IMG/VR virus record: IMGVR_UViG_2667527608_000007
Direction: 5' to 3' (one strand)
DNA: 9,003 bases
From: a virus
Taxonomy: Duplodnaviria > Heunggongvirae > Uroviricota > Caudoviricetes
Below, piece by piece: positions 85 through 9,003 of the stretch (positions are counted from its first letter, which is position 1; every line of letters begins with the position of its first letter). The notes below the pieces were generated by a model that worked only from the letters and a program-made list of their open reading frames with translations, was not told where the DNA came from and did not search any database. The translations under genes and the position numbers were made by a program.

Positions 85-127
85 AAAAAGAACAAATGGT
101 AGTGTCCGCTATTGCCAGTACACCTCA
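1..127 (+). mobile_element. Right end of an IS3-family insertion sequence (3' end of transposase gene plus terminal inverted repeat ending ...CACCTCA at 127); element continues to the left of the window
   Basis: Frame 1 translates as YNRQRRHSRLGNISPAAFREKYHQMAA*, the typical C-terminal tail of rve/DDE transposases of the IS3 family (HSxLGxxSPxxF). About 40 bp after the stop, GTGTCCGCTATTGCCAGTACACCTCA resembles an IS3-type terminal repeat ending in CA, as I recall it. No large ORF lies to the right for ~640 bp. Confidence 0.6.
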
Positions 128-772
128 AATACAGGGTTACTGATAGTGACACCAATTTCAAAACAACCTTCAGACGTATTAACGTTTGGTAATAACGTTT
201 CCATTATCGCGTCCTCAACAATGAATTTTGTGATGCAGTGCCTGGTGCCTCCAGGTGACGTTAACCAGTTAACAATTAACGCCGGATACAGAGAATCCAA
301 CCATAACACTGTTTTTGGTTTTAACTGTTCCGCGTGCGCTTAGCCGCATTCACCGCATCACAAAATTCACTTTAAAAAGGGCGGCAGAGCAGTCACGGAG
401 TAAAACTGATACCGCCAAACGTCACCAGAAAATTGATAACAGAGGGCGTTGCAGCGGGGTTGTCACTTAAGCGTATGGTCAACCTGACAACCCGGTGTCC
501 TCAACGGGGGAAGGAATAACCCCGCCATACTTACCGCCGCGCCATTTCGCGGATTGCCACAACCGGAAGCGCACGGTCGACGAAAATTTAACGACAGGCT
601 ATCTATGAACCAGCTACCTCGCCGTGCGCTTTCGCGTTATGGTCTGACTTTTCAGGGAAATATCCTTTCAGTAAACTGTCAGTGCCGGATGCTCACCCGT
701 GTCCGGCGCAAGCACTCCACCTCACCCGTGGAGAACTCCTTAATTACCAACCTTAGCTTCGTTGGTTAGCTA

Positions 773-991
773 TTAACGCGGGTATGTAATCATTCTGGCA
801 ATGGTTAATGCCGCTGCTTTTTCCAGATTGGTGATATCCTGCTCCAGAGAGGACAGATTTTCAGCCTGCTTAGCCCTGACTTCATTAGCCCATTTCAGAT
901 CCTGCGCTGCATTAATTTTCTGGTGCATCCACTCATAAAGTTCATCATTGGTATAGTCTGGCGCGATGATGACGGGTTCTCGTTTCTGCAT
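773..991 (-). CDS. Small hypothetical protein (72 aa) of the leftward early operon; function unknown
   Basis: ORF with a GAGGA ribosome-binding site 7 nt upstream of the ATG (minus strand, around 997-1001); same orientation and close packing with the two ORFs upstream of it. No family recognised. Confidence 0.5.
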   Translation of the reverse strand: MQKREPVIIAPDYTNDELYEWMHQKINAAQDLKWANEVRAKQAENLSSLEQDITNLEKAAALTIARMITYPR

Positions 992-1020
992 ACTGATTCC
1001 TCGCGGTGCTGTTTCGCTTA

Positions 1021-1149
1021 TCAGCCATTAGATTTTGCCGAACTGGAAAGCACCTGTTTAAATTCGTTGAAGCTGTGAGCTTCTTCGCCTTCGGCAAGGC
1101 CTTCGAAGTATTCTTCGTAAGCCTTTTCCATGATTGTGTCGAAATCCAT
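1021..1149 (-). CDS. Small acidic hypothetical protein (42 aa, MDFDTIMEKAYEEYFEGLAEGEEAHSFNEFKQVLSSSAKSNG)
   Basis: Not in the supplied ORF track (below its length cut-off). ATG at 1149..1147 follows a GGTGGG ribosome-binding site and sits 1 nt after the stop of the preceding ORF (TGA-T-ATG), suggesting translational coupling. Position is comparable to the small ydaG/ydaF genes of Rac, but identity is unverified. Confidence 0.4.
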   Translation of the reverse strand: MDFDTIMEKAYEEYFEGLAEGEEAHSFNEFKQVLSSSAKSNG

Positions 1150-1150
1150 A

Positions 1151-1387
1151 TCACCCACCTGAATTTCTTTCCAGCCAGCGACGCGCTCCAGATTCGGTTT
1201 TAAACGTTTTGCTTTTGGTATACGTCATTGCGGTGAACGTACCGTACTGGTTGGGGAACACGCCACATACCAGAGATTCGCTGTTGCCAAGATCGATAGT
1301 ATCCATGCTGACCTCATTTCCCCTTAACGCCGGGGTAGCGGAACAAAAACCTGCTGCATAGTTATTAAAGTTGAACCCTGCCGTCAT
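1151..1387 (-). CDS. Hypothetical protein (78 aa), first gene of the leftward early operon downstream of the PL-like promoter
   Basis: ORF begins about 95 nt downstream of the minus-strand promoter predicted at 1516..1488; weak GAGG upstream; stop abuts the next ORF's start. Confidence 0.45.
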   Translation of the reverse strand: MTAGFNFNNYAAGFCSATPALRGNEVSMDTIDLGNSESLVCGVFPNQYGTFTAMTYTKSKTFKTESGARRWLERNSGG

Positions 1388-1487
1388 GTTCTTACGCCTC
1401 GGGCTGGCTACTTAACCCGTGACCACTGCCTGGTAACTCGAGGTATTGCCCTGTATTGTGTGGGACGGGATGGGTTGGTATGGGAAA

Positions 1488-1555
1488 ACTATAGGAAATG
1501 CCTAATTACTTGTCAATAGGCTATGCCTAATAATTTGGGCGCAACCTAATAGGTG
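1488..1555 (-). promoter_or_regulatory. OL/PL-like region: leftward promoter (-35 TTGACA at 1516..1511, 17-bp spacer, -10 TATAGT at 1493..1488 on the minus strand) overlapped by repressor operator repeats
   Basis: ATAGGCTATGCCTAAT at 1516-1531 is the exact reverse complement of ATTAGGCATAGCCTAT at 2155-2170. Further half-site copies occur at 1491-1506 (ATAGGAAATGCCTAAT) and about 1546-1555 (CCTAATAGG). The promoter hexamers were read directly from the sequence. Confidence 0.6.
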
Positions 1556-1624
1556 ATGGTTTGTGGAAGAGGTAGTAGGAGTTAACTAACGGGAACTAGG
1601 AATTTCCCGTCGGACCATATAAGT

Positions 1625-2101
1625 TTAAGTTCCTGTCTTGGTGATGTTCTGGCTTTTCCGTTTTGATTCTTGATTTTTCAGATAGTTAGCTACCTTCATT
1701 TCCATTGCGGCAATGTAGGCGCGAACGTCATGATCAACCCAACTAGGCTCCGTAGCATTTCCAGATAAGATGAAAGCCACAATTGCTCTTTTTTCATCAG
1801 AGGCGGCTTGATAAAGGCTGTTTATGTCTAAAAGTTCACTTTTTGTATCTGAAGTGGATGGGGTTGGTATGGGGTATTCGTTAAGCCCCCAATGCTCTGG
1901 ACCAACCACATCAGAAAAGAAACGCCATAGTTCTGGAAGTTTGTCTTTACTTATCGAACCTTTCTTAATCCAGTCATGGATTGATGGTGGTTGGACTTTG
2001 AAATGACGTGCGATTTCCGCCTTTGATTTGACGGCTCCTGATGCAATTTTTTTGTTAATGGCCTGCTCTATCGCTCGGCCTAAGTCTTTACCACTAAGCA
2101 T
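1625..2101 (-). CDS. racR: CI-like prophage repressor with N-terminal helix-turn-helix (158 aa); resembles Rac prophage RacR
   Basis: N-terminal HTH segment (SKAEIARHFKVQPPSIHDWIKKG). Divergently oriented to a Cro-like gene and flanked on both sides by shared operator repeats. The 158-aa length and sequence match my recollection of E. coli RacR. The ORF is visibly more AT-rich than its neighbours. Confidence 0.75.
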   Translation of the reverse strand: MLSGKDLGRAIEQAINKKIASGAVKSKAEIARHFKVQPPSIHDWIKKGSISKDKLPELWRFFSDVVGPEHWGLNEYPIPTPSTSDTKSELLDINSLYQAASDEKRAIVAFILSGNATEPSWVDHDVRAYIAAMEMKVANYLKNQESKRKSQNITKTGT

Positions 2102-2126
2102 TGCTTAATAGTCTCCTATGCGCATC

Positions 2127-2198
2127 GCGTTAGGCAATCCCTACTCTCGATGTATTAGGCATAGCCTATTGACAATTTCATTAGGCTAAGCCTAATAT
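2127..2198 (+). promoter_or_regulatory. OR/PR-like region: rightward promoter (-35 TTGACA 2169-2174, 18-bp spacer, -10 TAATAT 2193-2198) with operators
   Basis: A perfect 17-bp palindrome ATTAGGCTAAGCCTAAT (2180-2196) lies between -35 and -10. An imperfect copy ATTAGGCATAGCCTAT is at 2155-2170 and a half-site GTTAGGCAAT near 2129-2138. Drives the Cro-like gene starting at 2226. Confidence 0.65.
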
Positions 2199-2225
2199 TG
2201 TTGCGTGTTTTTTGGAGTTCATTCG

Positions 2226-2549
2226 ATGAAAAAAGATAACTATTCATTCAAACGAGCTTGTGCTGTTGTCGGTGGGCAATCAGCAATGGCTAGGCTTTTA
2301 GGTGTATCTCCTCCAAGCGTAAATCAATGGATCAAAGGTGTACGTCAGTTACCTGCTGAGAGATGTCCTGCGATTGAACGAGCAACAAAAGGTGGTGTTC
2401 TGTGTGAAGAACTTCGTCCTGATGTTGATTGGACATACTTACGACGCTCGTCATGTTATTCGCAGAATATGTCGATGAAGCAACCAAATGACGAAAACGA
2501 TCATACCCGAAGCATCAAGAGGCAAATGATTCATGAAAATCAAACATGA
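2226..2549 (+). CDS. ydaS: Cro-like HTH transcriptional regulator (YdaS-like), 107 aa from ATG 2226
   Basis: GGAG ribosome-binding site at 2214-2217, 8 nt before ATG 2226. HTH segment QSAMARLLGVSPPSVNQWIKGVRQLP. The ORF track's start at 2205 is a GTG extension with no ribosome-binding site. The 3' end overlaps the next gene by 17 nt. Confidence 0.7.
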   Translation: MKKDNYSFKRACAVVGGQSAMARLLGVSPPSVNQWIKGVRQLPAERCPAIERATKGGVLCEELRPDVDWTYLRRSSCYSQNMSMKQPNDENDHTRSIKRQMIHENQT

Positions 2550-2958
2550 GCACATCCGCATGGCGATGAATGCCTGGGCATACCCTGATGGTGAGAAAGT
2601 TCCTGCAGCTGAAATAGCCCGGACTTATTTCGAACTGGGGATGACGTTCCCTGAACTGTACGACGACAGCCATCCGGAAGCCCTGGCCCGTAATACCCAG
2701 AAAATTTTCCGTTGGCTGGATAAAGACACCCCTGATGCTGTTGAAAAAATGCAGGCTCTGTTACCGGCGATCGAAAAGGCGATGCCGCCTTTGCTGGTGG
2801 CCCGTATGCGCAGCCACAGTTCTGAATATTACCGTGAGATCGTCGAACGGAGGGATCGGCTGGTGAAGGATGTCGATGATTTTGTTGCGTCAGCGGTTGT
2901 TTTGTATGACCAGATGAATCGCGGCGGCCCGGCAGGGAATGCTGTGGTGATGCACTAA
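2533..2958 (+). CDS. ydaT: YdaT-like protein (141 aa), partner of the Cro-like gene; CII-like regulator role is an inference
   Basis: AAGAGG upstream of ATG 2533. Size, position and sequence resemble Rac YdaT. Co-directional with and overlapping the Cro-like gene. Confidence 0.6.
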   Translation: MKIKHEHIRMAMNAWAYPDGEKVPAAEIARTYFELGMTFPELYDDSHPEALARNTQKIFRWLDKDTPDAVEKMQALLPAIEKAMPPLLVARMRSHSSEYYREIVERRDRLVKDVDDFVASAVVLYDQMNRGGPAGNAVVMH

Positions 2959-2980: not shown

Positions 2981-3943
2981 ATGAGCAGCAAGCTTCATGG
3001 TCTTGTCTGGGAAGGGTGCGCCTTCACCGGCATGATCTTATCCAGGGTGGCGGTTATGGCCCGTCTTGCAGACTACAGCAATGACGAGGGCGTGTCATGG
3101 CCTGCCATTGAAACTATCCGGCGTCAGATCGGTGCAAGAAGTGAATCCACAGTGAAATCGGCTATTGCAGAACTGGCGAAAGAGGGCTGGCTGACGAAGG
3201 AAGAGCGTAAGGTCGGTGGGCGTAATGTAAGCAATATCTATCGGCTTAATGTGGAAAAACTCGAAGCAGCTGCGGCGGCGGCGCGTGAGTCATATAAACC
3301 GAAAAGAAAAATTAGCCCGGCAAAAAATGACCCGTTAACAGTTGACCCGTCAAATATTGACCCCTCAACGGTTGACCCGTCAAATTTTGATGGATCAACT
3401 GTTGATAAAAAACTGCCGATTAGGGGGGCGATGATTGACCCCGATCCGTCAGTATTAAAACCTGATCCGTCAGATAAAAGATCTTCTTGTCCGGACGCTT
3501 CGCAACCGGACCCGCAGACGGCTGAACAGGATTTTTTAACCCGACACCCTGACGCGGTTGTGTTCAGTGCGAAAAAACGCCAGTGGGGAAGTCAGGAAGA
3601 TTTGGTGTGCGCACAGTGGATCTGGGGACGAATCGTGAGTCTTTACGAGCAGGCGGCCAGCGATGATGGCGAGATCACTAGACCGAAAGAACCCAACTGG
3701 ACAGCATGGGCCAATGACGTTCGCACAATGCGGATGCTGGATGGCAGAACTCACAGACAAATTTGTGAAATGTTTGGGCGTCTCCAGCGGGATTCGTTCT
3801 GGGTAAAAAACATCATGAGTCCGGCAAAACTCCGGGAAAAATGGGATGAACTGGTTATCCGCCTGGGGCGTTCGCCTGCGCAGCGTTGCGTGAATCACAT
3901 TTCTGAACCGGACACTGAAATACCGCCGGGATTCAGGGGGTGA
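2981..3943 (+). CDS. Lambda-O-like replication initiator (320 aa from ATG 2981): winged-helix N-terminal domain, repetitive linker, C-terminal domain
   Basis: N-terminal HTH/winged-helix region (ARLADYSNDEGVSWPAIETIRRQIGARSESTVKSAIAELAKEGWL). The linker DPLTVDPSNIDPSTVDPSNFDGSTVD is encoded by the tandem 15-bp iterons. Lies immediately upstream of the DnaC-like loader. The ORF track's 2966 start is a GTG extension. Confidence 0.7.
   Translation: MSSKLHGLVWEGCAFTGMILSRVAVMARLADYSNDEGVSWPAIETIRRQIGARSESTVKSAIAELAKEGWLTKEERKVGGRNVSNIYRLNVEKLEAAAAAARESYKPKRKISPAKNDPLTVDPSNIDPSTVDPSNFDGSTVDKKLPIRGAMIDPDPSVLKPDPSDKRSSCPDASQPDPQTAEQDFLTRHPDAVVFSAKKRQWGSQEDLVCAQWIWGRIVSLYEQAASDDGEITRPKEPNWTAWANDVRTMRMLDGRTHRQICEMFGRLQRDSFWVKNIMSPAKLREKWDELVIRLGRSPAQRCVNHISEPDTEIPPGFRG
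3328..3417. repeat. Tandem 15-bp iterons (about 6 copies, consensus TTGACCCGTCAAnnn), putative prophage origin of replication inside the initiator gene
   Basis: Copies start at 3328 (ATGACCCGTTAACAG), 3343 (TTGACCCGTCAAATA), 3358 (TTGACCCCTCAACGG), 3373 (TTGACCCGTCAAATT), 3388 (TTGATGGATCAACTG) and 3403 (TTGATAAAAAACTGC). Degenerate GAYCCGTCAG copies follow at about 3436-3475. Each core TGACCCGTCA is internally near-palindromic. Confidence 0.7.
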
Positions 3944-3949
3944 CGTGTC

Positions 3950-4690
3950 ATGAAAAACATTGCGGCAGTTGGGGTTCTTGAACGTATTCGCAGACTTGCA
4001 CCACAGGGGGCGGTTCCACCGTACCGGACGGTGGAGGAGTGGCGGGAATGGCAACTTGCTGAAGGACGAAAACGCAGCGAGGAGATTAACCGCCTGAATC
4101 ATCAGGTGCGGGTTGAAAAAATCCTGAACCGTGCGGGCATCCAGCCGCTTCACAGGAAGTGCTCATTCGGGAACTACCGGGTGCAGAACGACGGTCAGCG
4201 CCATGCTCTGAGCCAGGCGAAATCCATTGCCGATGAATTGATGACCGGATGTACAAACTTCGTGTTCAGCGGTAAACCTGGTACCGGTAAAAATCACCTG
4301 GCAGCAGCGATTGGCAATCGGCTGATGGCGAAGGGGAGAAGCGTGATTATCGTCACCGTGTCCGATGTCATGAGCGTGTTGCATGACGGCTACGACAACG
4401 GCCAGTCCGGGGAAAAATTTTTACAGGAGCTTTGTGGAGTTGACCTTCTGGTCCTTGATGAAATTGGCATGCAGCGGGATACGCGCAACGAGCAGGTCAC
4501 GCTGAACCAGATAGTCGACCGCAGAACGGCTTCGATGCGTAGTGTCGGAATGCTGACGAACCTGAATCACGCAGCGATGAGCACACTCCTCGGAGATCGG
4601 GTGATGGACCGTATGACCATGAATGGTGGTCGTTGGGTGAATTTTAACTGGGAGAGCTGGCGGTCAAACGTTGGACGTCAGGGTATGTGA
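3950..4690 (+). CDS. DnaC/IstB-like AAA+ helicase loader (246 aa); YdaV-like
   Basis: Walker A-like GKPGTGKNHLAAAIG and Walker B LLVLDEIG. Start is 7 nt after the initiator stop, with GGGGG upstream. Typical replication-module partner. Confidence 0.85.
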   Translation: MKNIAAVGVLERIRRLAPQGAVPPYRTVEEWREWQLAEGRKRSEEINRLNHQVRVEKILNRAGIQPLHRKCSFGNYRVQNDGQRHALSQAKSIADELMTGCTNFVFSGKPGTGKNHLAAAIGNRLMAKGRSVIIVTVSDVMSVLHDGYDNGQSGEKFLQELCGVDLLVLDEIGMQRDTRNEQVTLNQIVDRRTASMRSVGMLTNLNHAAMSTLLGDRVMDRMTMNGGRWVNFNWESWRSNVGRQGM

Positions 4691-4715
4691 GAATTTTTGA
4701 CGAGGTAAATTTTCG

Positions 4716-5486
4716 ATGGAAACTGTATTGCATGCACTGAAAGCGATGGGAAAAGCCAATTCTGTTGAACTGGCGGCGCGGCTTGATATCAGCCGTGAAG
4801 AAGTTCTTAACGAACTGTGGGAACTCAAAAAAAATGGCGTTGTTGATAAAACGGGTCACACCTGGTTTCTGGCTGTCGAAGGTGAAGCCGGGGTAACCGA
4901 AGGGCAGGCACTACAACCTGAAGCGCCGGATGTGGTAACCGAAGAGGTCGCTCCAAAAGTTACCGCAGACATGATGGTTGAGTTTATCGGTCAGGATGGT
5001 GCTAAAACGTGTGAGGAACTGGCGGGTAAGTTCGGCGTCAGTACTCGCAAGGTTGCTTCCACGCTGGCGGTGGTAACCGCAACGGGGCGGCTGGCACGCG
5101 TTAATCAGAACGGTAAATTTCGTTACTGCATGTCGGGGGGTAATTTACCAGCAGATCCGAAAGCCGCGCCGGTAACGAAAAATGATGGTAAGGCCTTTCC
5201 TCAGCCAGCAGGTGCTGCGTTACCAGTCCGGGAAGCCGCAACACAGGAAGAAATTAAAACAGAAACTGTGGCGGACATTGTGCAGCCGTTGCTATCGTTT
5301 ACCGAAACGCAAGCAGATGAGCTGATTTTTCCGTCCCTGCGCAGGGCAAACCTGGCGCTGCGCAGGGCGAAAAGTGATGTTCAGAAGTGGGAGCGAGTCT
5401 GCGCCGCGCTGCGGGAGCTGAACAAGCACCGGGATATTGTTCGACAGATTACTGATTCTTCCCGCCGTGTTGTATCGGAAAAGTGA
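4716..5486 (+). CDS. Hypothetical prophage protein with two winged-helix-like repeats (256 aa; DUF1627-like)
   Basis: Two similar HTH-like segments (ANSVELAARLDISREEVLNELWELKKNGVV and KTCEELAGKFGVSTRKVASTLAVVTATGRLARV); GAGG ribosome-binding site upstream. Confidence 0.6.
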   Translation: METVLHALKAMGKANSVELAARLDISREEVLNELWELKKNGVVDKTGHTWFLAVEGEAGVTEGQALQPEAPDVVTEEVAPKVTADMMVEFIGQDGAKTCEELAGKFGVSTRKVASTLAVVTATGRLARVNQNGKFRYCMSGGNLPADPKAAPVTKNDGKAFPQPAGAALPVREAATQEEIKTETVADIVQPLLSFTETQADELIFPSLRRANLALRRAKSDVQKWERVCAALRELNKHRDIVRQITDSSRRVVSEK

Positions 5487-5897: not shown

Positions 5898-6538
5898 GTG
5901 AATTAGCTATCAGGCTTCAATTGTCGCTGGCATTCGCATCAAAGGAGAATGAGATGATCACTTTTACAAAAGAGCAGTTAATCAGTCATGTTAGTGAAAA
6001 TGTAAAGGCGATGAAATTTGCAGTAAAACAGACAGTATTCAAAAATTCTCTCGAGGCAATTGAGTTGGATTTAGCACTGGCCCTTGTTGCTCAGGCTTCG
6101 CTGGAAGCAGAGCCCGTGCTTTATATGAATCGATTTACCGGAAAGACATTCTCACTGGAAGAGCAACCCGGTGCTGATAAGGAACCGGAAATATACGTGC
6201 CGCTATATGCTGCCCCGCCAGACAGCGCCGCCATGCTTCAGGCTGGAAACTTTCGGGAAAATAAGGGTTCGTCAACCAATAATTTTCGGGAAATCTCGGA
6301 AACGTCAACCAACTATCCGGTAACTCCGGATGGTTGGATAAGCTGTAGTGAGCGAATGCCGGATGATGGTCAGCACGTAATTATTTTATGTGATGGCGCA
6401 TTCGTTCTTTATGCGCAATATCGAGACGGTGAGTTTTTTGATGTAGTCCGTAATGGTGATGAATTTTTCGAAACACAGAGCCGCAATGTAACCGACTGGA
6501 TGCCGCTACCAGAACCGCCGCAGGAGGTGCGCCAATGA
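5894..6538 (+). CDS. Hypothetical prophage protein with C-terminal DUF551-like domain (214 aa from GTG 5894; alternative ATG at 5954)
   Basis: C-terminal segment DGWISCSERMPDDG...TDWMPLPEPP is typical of DUF551 phage proteins. AGGAGG at 5881-5886 precedes GTG 5894; AAGGAG precedes ATG 5954. Confidence 0.6.
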   Translation: MSELAIRLQLSLAFASKENEMITFTKEQLISHVSENVKAMKFAVKQTVFKNSLEAIELDLALALVAQASLEAEPVLYMNRFTGKTFSLEEQPGADKEPEIYVPLYAAPPDSAAMLQAGNFRENKGSSTNNFREISETSTNYPVTPDGWISCSERMPDDGQHVIILCDGAFVLYAQYRDGEFFDVVRNGDEFFETQSRNVTDWMPLPEPPQEVRQ

Positions 6539-6618
6539 TCTGGCCTGAAGCCTTTGCAATTACAGGCGTTGCTATAGCTATTGATTTTTTAGTATATGTT
6601 ATTTGTCGGTGGGGGTAA
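6535..6618 (+). CDS. Micro-ORF, 27 aa predicted single-TM peptide (MIWPEAFAITGVAIAIDFLVYVICRWG)
   Basis: Perfect AGGAGG at 6522-6527, 7 nt before the ATG, which overlaps the upstream stop (ATGA). Hydrophobic core of about 18 residues. Below the ORF-track cut-off. Confidence 0.4.
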   Translation: MIWPEAFAITGVAIAIDFLVYVICRWG

Positions 6619-6828: not shown

Positions 6829-6889
6829 TGCTGCGGGTGCTTGAGGCTGTCTGCCTCGGGCATGCCACCGTAAGGCAGACAGAGAAAAG

Positions 6890-6955
6890 CCCCAGTTAAC
6901 ATTACGCGTCCTGCAAGACGCCTAACATTAATCTGAGGCCAATTTCATGCTAGAC
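6890..6955 (-). ncRNA. Putative Sok-like antisense RNA overlapping the mok translation-initiation region (predicted from a promoter only)
   Basis: Minus-strand -35 TTGCCT (6990..6985), 17-bp spacer, -10 TAACCT (6967..6962) would start a transcript antisense to the mok ribosome-binding site (GAGG 6934-6937) and start codon (6947). The 3' end is not defined. Confidence 0.25.
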
Positions 6956-7159
6956 ATATGTAGGTTAGCCTCTTACGCGCCGAAAGGCAAGGAGAAGCAG
7001 GCTATGAAGCAGCAAAAGGCGATGTTAATCGCCCTGATCGTCATCTGTATCACCGTCATAGTGACGGCACTGGTAACGAGGAAAGACCTCTGCGAGGTAC
7101 GAATCCGAACCGGCCAGACGGAGGTCGCTGTCTTCACAGCTTACGAACCTGAGGAGTAA
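6947..7159 (+). CDS. mok: Mok-like reading frame (70 aa), in frame with and containing hok
   Basis: MLDICRLASYAPKGKEKQAMKQQ... closely parallels my recollection of E. coli MokC (MLNTCRVPLTDRKVKEKRAMKQH...), where mok is an in-frame N-terminal extension of hok. GAGG ribosome-binding site 9 nt upstream. Confidence 0.6.
   Translation: MLDICRLASYAPKGKEKQAMKQQKAMLIALIVICITVIVTALVTRKDLCEVRIRTGQTEVAVFTAYEPEE
7004..7159 (+). CDS. hok: Hok/Gef-family type I toxin (51 aa)
   Basis: MKQQKAMLIALIVICITVIVTALVTRKDLCEVRIRTGQTEVAVFTAYEPEE is near-identical to my recollection of HokC/Gef and HokD/RelF. AAGGAG ribosome-binding site at 6988-6993; single TM helix; conserved Cys and the RTGQTEVAVF motif. Confidence 0.9.
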   Translation: MKQQKAMLIALIVICITVIVTALVTRKDLCEVRIRTGQTEVAVFTAYEPEE

Positions 7160-7228
7160 GAGACCCGGCGAGGGAGAAATCCCTCGCCACCTCTGATGAA
7201 TCAGGCATCCTCAACGCACCCGCACTTA

Positions 7229-7254
7229 ACCCGCTTCGGCGGGTTTTGTTTTTT
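7229..7254 (+). terminator. Rho-independent terminator of the hok transcript (stem ACCCGC/GCGGGT with TTCG loop, then T-run)
   Basis: ACCCGCTTCGGCGGGTTTTGTTTTTT read directly. An additional perfect 9-bp hairpin with GAAA loop (GGCGAGGGA-GAAA-TCCCTCGCC) lies at 7167-7188, just after the hok stop. Confidence 0.7.
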
Positions 7255-7326
7255 CCTGGCATTCTGGTTTACAATTCGCACGCCAGCCTGAACAACTGGC
7301 ACCTGCTGCGCCAGCAGAGACAACCG

Positions 7327-7605
7327 ATGGCGCACGATACCAAATTATACAATTCTGATGATTCTGCCGTCTTTGCCAGCAGGCGCGGACGGTGTTTTCA
7401 CGCATTCAAATCTGACTGGTACCAGCATCCCCCATGCACTGAAGAACAGGCCGAATGGCTCATTCAGTGTTACCGCAGGCGCGGATGCGAGGTTAAAAAA
7501 GCCCTTAGCCTCGACTACCGTCACTGGATAATCTCCGTCAGGCTCCCTTACTCCGAACGGCCACCGCGTCCGTCCCGCACATTCCAGCAACGGATCTGGA
7601 GGTAA
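7327..7605 (+). CDS. Small Cys-rich hypothetical protein (92 aa from ATG 7327), in the position occupied by rem in the Qin prophage
   Basis: ORF downstream of the hok terminator. The track's 7246 start would overlap the terminator T-run, so ATG 7327 is preferred. Four cysteines (C-x15-C-x10-C-x6-C). Weak ribosome-binding site. Confidence 0.45.
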   Translation: MAHDTKLYNSDDSAVFASRRGRCFHAFKSDWYQHPPCTEEQAEWLIQCYRRRGCEVKKALSLDYRHWIISVRLPYSERPPRPSRTFQQRIWR

Positions 7606-7606
7606 T

Positions 7607-8656
7607 GTGCGGGTATTACTTCGACCTGTTCTGGTACCGGAACTCGGTCTGGTTATCGTTAAGCCAGGCCGTGAATCAATGTCAGCATTCCATAACGGCA
7701 GAATACTGGTGGAGCCGGAACCAAAAAGCATGCGAGCTCTGCCGTCCGGGGTTGTACCTGCCGTTCACCAGCCGCTGGCGGAAGATAAATCACTACTGCC
7801 ATTTTTCAGCGATGAGCGGGTGAGCCGTGCTGCGGGTGGCGCTGGTGCACTGTCTGACTGGTTATTACGTCACGTGAAATCCTGCCAGTGGCTACACGGT
7901 GATTATCATCACAGCGAAACCGTCATTCACCGTTACGGTACCGGCGCAATGGTGTTGTGCTGGCACTGCGACAACCAGTTGCGTGACCAGACATCCGAAT
8001 CACTCGAGCAACTTGCTCATCAAAACCTGTCAGCATGGATGATTGACGTCATCGGTCACGCAATAAGCGGTACGCAGGAGCGTGAATTATCTCTGGCTGA
8101 ATTATCCTGGTGGGCGGTCCGCAATCAGGTGGCGGACGCGCTACCGGAAGCGGTATTACGTCGTTCGCTGGGGTTGCGTGCGGAAAAAATCCGCTCCATG
8201 TACCGTGAAAGCGACATCGTACCGGGAGAGCAGACCGCCACCAGCATACTGAAACAGCGCACAAAAAATCTTGCGCCGCTGCCTCACGCCCACCAGCAAC
8301 AGAACCCACCACAGGAAAAGACGGTGGTCAGCATTGCCGTTGATCCTGAGTCTCCGGAATCTTTCATGAAACGACCTAAACGTCGCCGCTGGGTTAACGA
8401 GAAATACACTCGCTGGGTGAAGACACAGCCGTGTGCGTGTTGTGGTAAGCCAGCCGACGATCCCCATCACCTGATTGGTCATGGTCAGGGCGGAATGGGG
8501 ACAAAATCTCACGATATTTTCACGCTACCGCTGTGTCGGGAGCATCACAACGAGCTTCATGCGGATCCGCTGGCGTTCGAAGAAAAGCATGGTTCTCAGG
8601 TTGATTTAATTTTTCGTTTTCTTGATCACGCCTTTGCAACTGGCGTGCTTGGGTAA
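7607..8656 (+). CDS. ydfU: DUF968/YdfU-like prophage protein with C-terminal HNH-like Cys/His motif (349 aa from GTG 7607)
   Basis: C-terminal CACCGKPADDPHHLIGHGQGGMGTKSHDIFTLPLCREHHNELH. Size matches Qin YdfU as I recall it. GGAGG lies only 4 nt upstream of the GTG, so the start is uncertain (alternative ATG at 7679). Confidence 0.65.
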   Translation: MRVLLRPVLVPELGLVIVKPGRESMSAFHNGRILVEPEPKSMRALPSGVVPAVHQPLAEDKSLLPFFSDERVSRAAGGAGALSDWLLRHVKSCQWLHGDYHHSETVIHRYGTGAMVLCWHCDNQLRDQTSESLEQLAHQNLSAWMIDVIGHAISGTQERELSLAELSWWAVRNQVADALPEAVLRRSLGLRAEKIRSMYRESDIVPGEQTATSILKQRTKNLAPLPHAHQQQNPPQEKTVVSIAVDPESPESFMKRPKRRRWVNEKYTRWVKTQPCACCGKPADDPHHLIGHGQGGMGTKSHDIFTLPLCREHHNELHADPLAFEEKHGSQVDLIFRFLDHAFATGVLG

Positions 8657-8668
8657 AAGAGGTGACTG

Positions 8669-9003
8669 ATGCTCATAGATTTGGTTTTACCTTACCCGCC
8701 GACGGTGAACACTTACTGGCGACGCCGTGGCAGCACATATTTTATCTCGGAGGAGGGAAAGCGTTATCGCCGGGCTGTGGCGCTTATTGTTCGCCAGCAG
8801 CGGCTGAAATTAAGCCTGTCCGGAAGGCTGGCGATAAAGATTATTGCCGAGCCACCGGATAAGCGCCGCCGTGACTTGGACAATATTCTGAAAGCGCCGC
8901 TGGATGCGCTGACGCATGCGGGGTTGCTAATGGACGATGAGCAGTTTGATGAAATCAATATCGTTCGTGCTCAGCCAGTATCTGGTGGACGTCTGGGGGT
9001 GAA
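8669..9003 (+). CDS. rusA: RusA-family Holliday-junction resolvase, N-terminal 111 codons; 3' end beyond the window
   Basis: MLIDLVLPYPPTVNTYWRRRGSTYFISEEGKRYRRAVALIVRQQ...PPDKRRRDLDNILKAPLDALTHAGLLMDDEQFDEINIVRAQPVSGGRLGV carries the RusA hallmark segments. The frame stays open to the window end and was verified codon by codon. The track's 8662..8862 ORF is in another frame. Confidence 0.85.
   Translation, partial: MLIDLVLPYPPTVNTYWRRRGSTYFISEEGKRYRRAVALIVRQQRLKLSLSGRLAIKIIAEPPDKRRRDLDNILKAPLDALTHAGLLMDDEQFDEINIVRAQPVSGGRLGV

Follow-up and report, generated by a model that had tools for sequence, protein, structure and literature searches.

A probable nin-like DNA-processing block with a YdfU-type DUF968 protein in a mosaic lambdoid prophage

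The right end of the 9,003-nt stretch of viral DNA analyzed here (hereafter, the window) probably serves for DNA processing in a mosaic lambdoid prophage of Escherichia coli and resembles a nin region, delayed-early and pre-Q. Three tightly packed co-directional genes are found there between an intact hok/sok locus on the 5' side and the gene of the Q antiterminator on the 3' side (table 1): a 92-aa ORF, a gene encoding a 349-aa DUF968 protein, and a RusA gene that extends past the window end. These ORFs and their coordinates had been given correctly in an earlier note on this DNA. The block is an ordinary set of recombination genes in an E. coli lambdoid prophage of a very common kind, and it is mostly routine because all three genes belong to described families. 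Over 2.1 kb, the region matches annotated E. coli genomes with 100% identity; the gene order there is hok, hypothetical, DUF968, RusA, and Q. At least 80% of these 2.1 kb was found in 3504 of the 5426 complete E. coli genomes, about two thirds, including K-12 and many STEC prophages.

Table 1. Features of the block and of the adjacent hok/sok locus (window coordinates).
Feature	Position	Strand	Evidence or details
hok/sok regulatory region (sok, RF01794)	6835..7009	+	Rfam 114 bits vs gathering score 59
mok (70 aa), enclosing the 51-aa hok (7004-7159)	6947..7159	+	Pfam HOK_GEF E 1e-23
Intrinsic terminator-like hairpin and T-run, end of hok transcript	7228..7255	+	No promoter-like site up to the small ORF
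92-aa PHROG 1212 protein, function unassigned in PHROG	7327..7605	+	ATG 7327, TAA 7603-7605
GGAGG Shine-Dalgarno of DUF968 gene, within 3' end of small ORF	7598..7602	+	Read from sequence
349-aa YdfU-type DUF968 protein	7607..8656	+	GTG start; Pfam DUF968
Predicted N-domain zinc-knuckle motif C93-Q-x6-Y-[C/H]101-H...C118-W-H-[H/C]121-D122-N	7883..7975	+	Conservation, 28 homologs
HNH/His-Me catalytic core and structural zinc site	8432..8560	+	C276-x2-C279, H287-H288, D303, C310-x2-H313, H314, N315, H318
RusA (Holliday-junction resolvase), codons 1-111 of 124	8669..9003	+	Pfam RusA E 1e-16; ATG 8669

Origin and Gene Content of the Block

The earlier note had described the element as a recombinant of the Rac and Qin lineages, and this holds. 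According to nucleotide identity with K-12, hok (97%) and the DUF968 gene (84%) are Qin-like, and racR-ydaS (86%) and ydaV/W (72%) are Rac-like. The element is even more mosaic than was stated there, as the DicF/dicB end (window 127-1344) is also Qin-like (96.6%). The mok/hok region is annotated hokD in a 100%-identical genome. Unlike the intact locus of the window, hokD of K-12 has lost its sok/mok part, and the homology with K-12 Qin starts only at position 6990. Downstream of hok, no promoter-like site was recognized between the terminator-like hairpin and the small ORF. Expression of the block therefore depends on presumed read-through. A repeat search of positions 7100-9003 gave nothing meaningful. 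Elsewhere in the same prophage, a separate HNH gene lies directly 5' of the terminase small subunit gene (18699-19064 in the source genome, L001).

The 92-aa protein is a real phage protein under purifying selection. The PHROG 1212 profile aligns over its entire length (positions 1-66 of 66) with residues 27-92 (E 5.9e-36), which form a conserved core made of a beta-alpha-beta-beta arrangement and a basic PRPSR..QQRIW tail. Residues 1-26 are a poorly conserved extension, predicted to be disordered. No match was obtained for the small protein in a Pfam search, and neither it nor the DUF968 protein matched the PADLOC defense models or NCBIfam. A relationship with NinE or NinF was rejected (hhalign probability 0.1-0.2%). 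The four spaced cysteines pointed out in the earlier note are present (C23, C37, C48, and C54), but they do not constitute a conserved motif. C37 alone shows conservation in the family, and PY54 has a methionine even at this position; the three others vary within E. coli itself and are replaced by Y, S, and F in the K-12 copy. The cysteine-rich character is thus incidental, and we rejected the hypothesis of a Cys4 zinc protein.

The gene order given for Qin in the earlier note implied that the small protein is Rem. The small protein shows no similarity to Rem. In the alignment to K-12 Qin, rem sits in a K-12-specific insert of ~380 bp that is absent from the window, and the small ORF aligns with an unannotated stretch between rem and ydfU. 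This stretch, complement(1644306..1644584) in K-12, translates to an intact 92-aa homolog, an ORF missing from the K-12 annotation. The gene occupies the slot immediately 5' of a nin-region nuclease gene: among 32 diverse loci, the gene directly 3' of the PHROG 1212 gene encodes a His-Me nuclease in 29 cases (14 YbcO, 12 NinG, and 3 DUF968). This position is newly noted here, as a minor point. We did not see any co-evolution of the small-protein clades with the nuclease type.

The RusA assignment was borne out by Pfam (PF05866), with 62 bits against a cut-off of 22.8 for the partial sequence. Similarity to E. coli RusA (1Q8R) covers residues 5-113 (E 2e-22), with conservation of the RRRDLDN and DD motifs. 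The catalytic aspartates, D70, D72, and D91 in the E. coli reference, are conserved, and D69 (8873-8875), D71 (8879-8881), and D89/D90 all lie inside the window. The earlier note had named a truncation just past the window as an observation that would count against it; in the 100%-identical source genome, the gene is complete, with 124 aa, and Q is the next gene. The NCBIfam equivalog for DLP12 RusA scores 86 bits against a cut-off of 200, and we therefore consider this RusA a diverged phage allele. The pairing of DUF968 with RusA suggested previously is not obligate, since RusA is missing between ydfU and Q in K-12 Qin and the DUF968 gene leads straight to Q in 8 of 87 related loci.

The Two-Domain DUF968 Protein

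Profile searches bore out the DUF968 assignment of the 349-aa protein. Pfam DUF968 (PF06147) matches residues 160-346 at E 4.4e-77, scoring 258.4 bits where the cut-off is 27.8, and PHROG 96, named "HNH endonuclease" like several weaker PHROG matches, aligns over the full length (E 3e-173). The GTG start lies 4 nt past its GGAGG and 1 nt from the stop of the small ORF, a spacing compatible with translational coupling; K-12 shows it too. The protein consists of an N-domain (residues 1-225), a disordered linker (~226-250), and a C-terminal His-Me finger (~251-349). Its AF2 model has a mean pLDDT of 85.6, with values below 50 for residues 228-240. Both domains are under purifying selection (dN/dS 0.08-0.12), which is strong for the C-domain (0.08), even when compared with the cryptic K-12 copy. 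PDB sequence searches, whether by single sequence or by profile, returned no match even at E<=10. Some sequences join the N-domain to tail, portal, or capsid proteins, and others contain internal duplications or have Q, RusA, or the small ORF fused on; these were judged to be chimeras, mis-assemblies, or decayed prophages and not true architectures.

The C-terminal ~100 residues form a zinc-stabilized His-Me (HNH) finger of the Ref/YbcO/HNHc_6 lineage. The Cys/His arrangement from which the earlier note had proposed an HNH/His-Me nuclease is present, ending in C310-x2-H313-H314-N315-x-L317-H318. Its reading is supported by profile comparisons (Ref, E 3e-5; YbcO-type, E 2e-5; Gp16, E 4e-8) and by the predicted fold. 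This fold places the motif on a beta-beta-alpha element, with a histidine closing the first strand and the putative metal-binding His/Asn in the helix, and matches the HNH domains of P1 Ref, IscB, and Cap5, as well as YbcO. The structural zinc site has the treble-clef form C-x2-C...C-x2-C/H. Among 28 homologs, C276 is found in 28, C279 in 23, C310 in 24, and H313 in 23 (as C or H). H287, H288, H314, and H318 are all present in the window protein and in 25 of the 28, and D303 is invariant. The entire motif is retained in 20 homologs, which are 26-83% identical to the window protein. The eight others lack either the zinc ligands or the catalytic histidines, so that activity is not universal in the family. 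By this arrangement, H288 would be the general base, H318 (with N315/D303) would hold the catalytic Mg/Mn, and C276, C279, C310, and H313 would hold the structural Zn. Pfam RecA_dep_nuc (PF16786) gave no match, which leaves the protein outside the Ref family. Its HNHc_6 (PF16784) score of 22.4 bits is below the cut-off for membership, 26.6. No similarity to NinG was detected.

The HNH nature of DUF968 proteins was already predicted in print in 2017, when they were recorded as His-Me group 7 with RusA/Q neighbors (PMC5714182), and the link between YbcO and Ref has been drawn as well (PMC4999995). That the function is still uncharacterized, as the earlier note put it, thus holds only in part, and the DUF968/HNHc_6 homolog Gp16 has been characterized (PMC12817073). 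It does hold for YdfU itself: our literature search found no experimental characterization of YdfU or any close homolog.

The N-terminal ~225 residues are a family-specific helical domain with a predicted Cys3His zinc knuckle. That this domain has its own conserved four-ligand motif, presumably for zinc, is a minor new point. Among the 28 homologs, C93, C118, and H/C121 are present in all, C/H101 and W119 in 27, and D122 in 26. Residues 101 and 121 swap between C+H (16 homologs), H+C (6), and H+H (5), but are never C+C. AF2 places the motif on a beta-beta-alpha element (strands 105-110 and 113-118, helix 119-125). H102 is present in only 15 of the 28 homologs. The knuckle aligns in register with the C-terminal HNH motif, but not significantly (hhalign E 0.2); the idea that it is a duplicate of this motif is hence purely hypothetical. 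An origin of the N-domain in an upstream gene (NinB/Orf, YbcN, or DUF1367) fused to YbcO was rejected. Comparisons with lambda NinB, phiES15 YbcN, and mEp237 gp50 gave hhalign probabilities of 0.1-0.2%, which sets the protein apart from the Orf/NinB-HNH fusion class (HNHc_6, PF16784; members φETA Orf20 and ΦNM1 Gp16).

Proposed Function and Alternatives

On balance, we favor as fairly probable that the small PHROG 1212 protein, the two-domain HNH enzyme, and RusA form a nin-like block for DNA processing. The analysis shows directly which genes these are and in what order they lie, together with their motifs, homology, conservation, and predicted fold. By analogy with P1 Ref and ΦNM1 Gp16, the 349-aa protein would be a nuclease that introduces nicks into intermediates of recombination or replication, perhaps with assistance from RecA. 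As neither the NinB-like domain of Gp16 nor the basic tail of Ref is related to its N-domain, RecA dependence is not confidently transferable. Nicking would feed phage recombination and late replication, and RusA would resolve the resulting Holliday junctions. A contribution of the small protein, if any, is presumed.

Alternatively, the small protein and the nuclease might be a functional pair, the former acting as an inhibitor/immunity factor or a DNA-targeting subunit in a host-directed toxin or take-over module and not in a recombination helper. The 29 of 32 loci with a His-Me nuclease gene directly 3' of the small ORF are consistent with this, as are the overlap or 1-2 nt spacing of small-ORF stop and nuclease start, the maintenance of the pair in the window although hok replaces the usual upstream gene DUF1367, and the growth inhibition exerted by Gp16 (PMC12817073). 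However, the grouping of the small proteins into clades does not follow that of the nucleases, as nearly identical small proteins adjoin YbcO or NinG, and in the scanned short-form loci the small gene is equally tight to the upstream DUF1367 gene. Lambda and DLP12 have NinF or NinE in this slot, neither of which is homologous to the small protein, PADLOC gave no match, and lambdoid nin gene order is conserved by descent anyway. We therefore regard such a pair as unlikely. Similarly, there is a slim chance that PHROG 1212 serves the nin His-Me nucleases as a dedicated accessory factor, be it a regulator, an inhibitor, or an adaptor to DNA or a partner, and, separately, that the YdfU N-domain carries a second, degenerate HNH-like zinc module. 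PHROG 1212 is kept across YbcO, NinG/Rap, and DUF968 and is positioned for translational coupling. A second module, if real, would set the substrates or partners of the enzyme apart from those of Ref and Gp16.

It is also doubtful that the role of the 349-aa protein is non-catalytic, in DNA binding or regulation, with two zinc modules that only bind DNA or a partner and a vestigial HNH site. In favor of such a role, three of the 28 homologs have kept the zinc ligands and lost the catalytic histidines, no catalytic histidine is strictly conserved in the N-domain knuckle, and the annotation of one member of the family is that of a transcriptional regulator (PMC5714182). On the other side, the complete set of histidines in the window protein and 25 homologs, the invariant D303, the low dN/dS of the C-domain, and the requirement of the homologous motif for Gp16 activity (PMC12817073) argue for a catalytic site. 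Roles in packaging (cos cleavage together with the terminase, as for HK97 gp74) or as a mobile homing endonuclease are frequent among HNH proteins, and several weak PHROG matches are named "HNH endonuclease". We nevertheless consider them highly improbable here: the prophage has its separate HNH gene by the terminase small subunit, in dozens of loci the DUF968 gene is found at one set place of the nin region, ahead of RusA/Q, and not at variable insertion sites, and its product is related most closely to Ref, YbcO, and Gp16 and not to HNH proteins of packaging.

Gp16 demonstrates that DNA nicking, RecA binding, and host poisoning are within the reach of this nuclease lineage. If confirmed in ubiquitous E. 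coli prophages, such an activity would bear on prophage induction, on recombination among the many lambdoid prophages of STEC, and also on antibiotic-phage synergy as described for P1 Ref. The practical gains are small: the small gene is re-identified as distinct from rem, a conserved ORF missing from the annotation of K-12 Qin is recognized, and the residues for mutagenesis are defined.

Comparison with Known Systems

The closest known system is YdfU of K-12 Qin (b1560; DUF968; His-Me group 7, Jablonska et al. 2017), likewise a 349-aa protein with a GTG start and a GGAGG. The two regions are 84% identical in nucleotide sequence over positions 7310-8656 and share the motifs, the upstream small ORF, and hok. 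K-12 Qin differs by the presence of rem (b1561) between hok and the small ORF, the loss of sok/mok, and the absence of RusA. For ΦNM1 Gp16, from a Staphylococcus aureus phage, a study of 2026 demonstrated an HNH nickase that interacts with RecA and inhibits host growth; mutants in its C-x2-C, C-x2-H, and histidine residues lost toxicity fully or partly (PMC12817073). Gp16 aligns with the window protein over ~156 homologous columns (hhalign probability 95%), with an identical C-x2-C...LCREHHNE.HA zinc/catalytic motif. It also exceeds the Pfam DUF968 threshold, and ΦNM1 too has a RusA gene nearby. However, Gp16 has 223 aa and a NinB-like N-domain, in place of the 225-residue N-domain with its own predicted zinc knuckle. 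P1 Ref, a RecA-dependent HNH endonuclease (PDB 3PLW), has a disordered basic N-terminus where the window protein has a folded predicted zinc domain. YbcO (DLP12/phage 82, DUF1364, PDB 3G27) is a nuclease domain alone, of ~96 aa, with a single histidine at the position of the HH of DUF968. Lambda NinG/Rap has no detectable sequence similarity to the 349-aa protein. Finally, the window RusA shares with E. coli RusA (DLP12; PDB 1Q8R, 2H8C) the catalytic motifs and the location directly 5' of Q.

A widespread three-gene block in a lambdoid mosaic

Downstream of an intact hok locus (6835-7159: Rfam sok match, mok frame and hok), the ORF listing and reading of the window identify three same-strand genes encoding a 92-aa protein, a 349-aa YdfU-type DUF968 protein, and RusA. 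The 2.1-kb region 6900-9003 is 100% identical to many Escherichia coli chromosomes, for example that of O103:H2 strain 12009, and at least 80% of it is present in 3,504 of 5,426 complete E. coli genomes. The identical genome is annotated, in order, with hokD, a hypothetical protein, a DUF968 domain-containing protein, RusA, and antitermination protein Q. The three-gene observation is therefore real, but its object is common and was annotated beforehand: a nin-like recombination block of a standard and widespread kind. A separate, packaging-type HNH endonuclease gene lies in the same prophage (18699-19064 of the identical source genome, L001), some 290 bp before the gene for the small subunit of the terminase.

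A strong terminator-like hairpin closes the hok transcript 72 nt ahead of the small ORF, and a search of the interval gave no sigma-70-like promoter. Presumably the block is transcribed through read-through or antitermination that starts upstream.

The proposal in the earlier note of a recombinant, Rac-like on the left and Qin-like on the right, proved essentially right in BLASTN comparisons with the K-12 prophages, which add a further Qin-like piece at the leftmost end. That piece corresponds to the Qin dicB/DicF/ydfABC segment and adjoins the Rac-like immunity genes racR, ydaS, and ydaT, with a recombination joint near 1319-1344. Such a Rac/Qin mixture is ordinary lambdoid mosaicism. As K-12 Qin homology begins only at about 6990, K-12 hokD lacks the sok/mok part, whose place in Qin is occupied by relBE.

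Features of the window (identities are from BLASTN against K-12 prophages)
Feature	Position	Strand	Remark
DicF/dicB side	127-1344		96.6% identity to Qin
DicF	379-430	-	inside left-end Qin-like segment
racR-ydaS	1319-2556		86% identity to Rac
ydaV/ydaW-like	3907-5174		72% identity to Rac
sok	6835-7009	+	Rfam match
hok segment	6990-7253		97% identity to Qin
hok	7004-7159	+	Pfam
Terminator-like hairpin	7228-7245, T-run to 7255	+	closes hok transcript
Right-hand segment	7310-8656		84% identity to Qin
92-aa small ORF	ATG 7327 to TAA 7603-7605	+	ORF listing
GGAGG	7598-7602	+	4 nt ahead of GTG 7607
349-aa ORF	GTG 7607 to 8656	+	ORF listing
N-domain motif	7883-7975	+	residues 93-123; predicted beta-beta-alpha element
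RusA gene	8669 to past window end	+	111 codons inside; ORF listing
RusA D69 and D71	8873-8881	+	alignment to 1Q8R

The two domains of the DUF968 protein

The 349-aa protein matches Pfam DUF968 over residues 160-346 (258 bits), as the earlier note expected, and PHROG 96 "HNH endonuclease" over its full length; a match to HNHc_6 (residues 271-319) falls below the Pfam threshold. Among 1.84 billion representatives, we found 3,087 relatives, some of them homologous over the full length at identities as low as 26%. In 28 aligned relatives the C-terminal motif reads C276-x2-C279, H287-H288, D303, C310-x2-[C/H]313-H314-x3-H318. D303 is invariant and the complete set is present in 20 homologues; five have lost the zinc ligands and kept the histidines, and three the reverse. 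In the AlphaFold model based on this alignment (mean pLDDT 85.6), the N-domain spans residues 1 to ~225 and is joined by a disordered linker (228-240) to a C-domain with a predicted beta-beta-alpha element (strands 285-288 and 306-309, helix 311-319). Profile comparisons relate the protein to the P1 endonuclease Ref (E 3e-5, with PLCR-x-HH common to both), to a YbcO-type protein (E 2e-5), and to Gp16 of Staphylococcus aureus phage ΦNM1 (probability 95%, E 4e-8, identical LCREHHNE.HA segment), an HNHc_6 protein that also passes the DUF968 threshold. At the level of sequence profiles, they confirm homology to all three.

The HNH idea of the earlier note is correct but not new. DUF968, with YdfU named, and DUF1364/YbcO were placed in His-Me finger group 7, with RusA and Q recorded as neighbours (Jablonska et al. 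2017, PMC5714182). YbcO has been tied to Ref and HNHc_6 (Kaur and Subramanian 2016, PMC4999995), and Gram-positive DUF968 proteins were described as Orf-like plus HNH (Curtis et al. 2014, PMC4118853). Gp16 has been shown to be a RecA-binding nickase, inhibitory to the host and favourable to propagation of the phage; mutants in C-x2-C or C-x2-H are dead, and those altered in His are partly defective (PMC12817073, 2026). The family is no longer entirely uncharacterised; for YdfU itself, no characterisation was found in the literature searched. Public databases contain many "variants" of DUF968 (P0001-P0003, P0008, P0027, P0033, P0040, P0051, P0125, P0143, P0173, P0191, P0192) that are duplicated internally or fused to Q, RusA, the small ORF, or a tail, portal, or capsid protein. 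These resemble chimeric assemblies or prophages in decay rather than true architectures.

The N-domain has no PDB relative by sequence or profile search and no structural match in BFVD; comparison ruled out NinB/Orf-, YbcN-, and DUF1367-like identities. It contains a second conserved motif: C93 (28/28), C/H101 (27/28), C118 (28/28), and H/C121 (28/28), together with W119 (27/28) and D122 (26/28). Residues 101 and 121 exchange Cys and His (C+H in 16 homologues, H+C in six, H+H in five, C+C never), a pattern that suggests one zinc site with four ligands. The motif can be set in register against the C-terminal HNH, but the alignment is not significant (E 0.2), and the candidate catalytic His102 occurs in only 15 of the 28 homologues. 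We therefore take it for a predicted zinc knuckle with a structural or binding role, perhaps an HNH that has degenerated.

The PHROG 1212 gene and its neighbours

The small protein had been taken for a Cys-rich Rem. However, rem sits in a ~380-bp K-12 Qin insert missing from the window, and the small ORF aligns instead to an unannotated stretch between rem and ydfU. In K-12 MG1655, this stretch encodes an intact 92-aa homologue, complement(1644306..1644584) (6307-6585, minus strand, of locus L002, NC_000913.3), under purifying selection (core dN/dS 0.08); the RefSeq record has no CDS there. The Cys-rich motif fails as well: only C37 of the four cysteines is conserved, K-12 having Y, S, and F at the others. 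Without a match in Pfam, NCBIfam, or PADLOC, the protein matches PHROG 1212 (function not assigned) across the whole 66-position profile (E 6e-36). Homologues, 66-69 aa long and 35-50% identical, are carried by mEp237, Gifsy-1/2, SPN3UB, phiES15, PY54, N15, and many enterobacterial prophages. Their spread and the PHROG match identify the small ORF, from sequence, as a real gene. Lambda NinE and NinF are unrelated, though they occupy the same slot.

We surveyed 42 loci (one-genome-per-species contigs plus four phages). Where a downstream ORF was definable (n = 32), the PHROG 1212 gene is followed by YbcO (14), NinG (12), E. coli-type DUF968 (3), RusA (1), or an unassigned gene (2), stop and start overlapping or lying 1-2 nt apart. 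Such tight adjacency to nucleases might indicate a partnership, to which we assign a low probability. The small-protein clusters do not track the nuclease family, and at short-form loci the scanned upstream ~200-aa ORFs are DUF1367 and abut the small gene, so that conserved gene order in the nin region, not a specific partnership between proteins, may explain the adjacency.

In non-Escherichia prophages (L097-L128, L003, L004), the conserved block reads DUF1367 (~199 aa, some 600 nt ahead of the small ORF), PHROG 1212, then YbcO or NinG; in the annotated phages of this group RusA and Q come after. mEp237 gp50, annotated "NinB/Orf", falls in the ~199-aa group, scanned members of which match Pfam DUF1367. 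An E. coli-type hok/rem/small-ORF/DUF968 segment in a Veillonella parvula MAG contig (L092, JAGZPX010000007.1) is probably binning contamination.

RusA and the proposed pathway

The RusA assignment stands (Pfam E 1e-16; E. coli RusA 1Q8R, E 2e-22, RRRDLDN and DD conserved), and the gene, which might have been truncated beyond the window, is complete (124 aa) in the identical source genome. The suggested pairing of DUF968 with RusA is not obligate: RusA is missing beside DUF968 in K-12 Qin, and of the 87 loci that carry the small ORF in its long form, 67 have RusA next after DUF968 and eight pass straight from DUF968 to Q.

Based on homology to Ref and Gp16, the 349-aa protein, as an HNH enzyme stabilised by Zn, would most likely nick recombination intermediates, perhaps with the help of RecA, and RusA would resolve them afterwards. 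The new points are modest ones: the identification of the small gene as PHROG 1212 in place of rem, its conserved position, an ORF of K-12 that had escaped annotation, and a predicted zinc motif in the N-domain. In ΦNM1 (L132), the Gp16 nuclease gene (4052-4723) follows ssb, and a RusA gene (7706-8113) lies ~3 kb downstream. The HNH-plus-RusA theme thus recurs in an unrelated Gram-positive phage.
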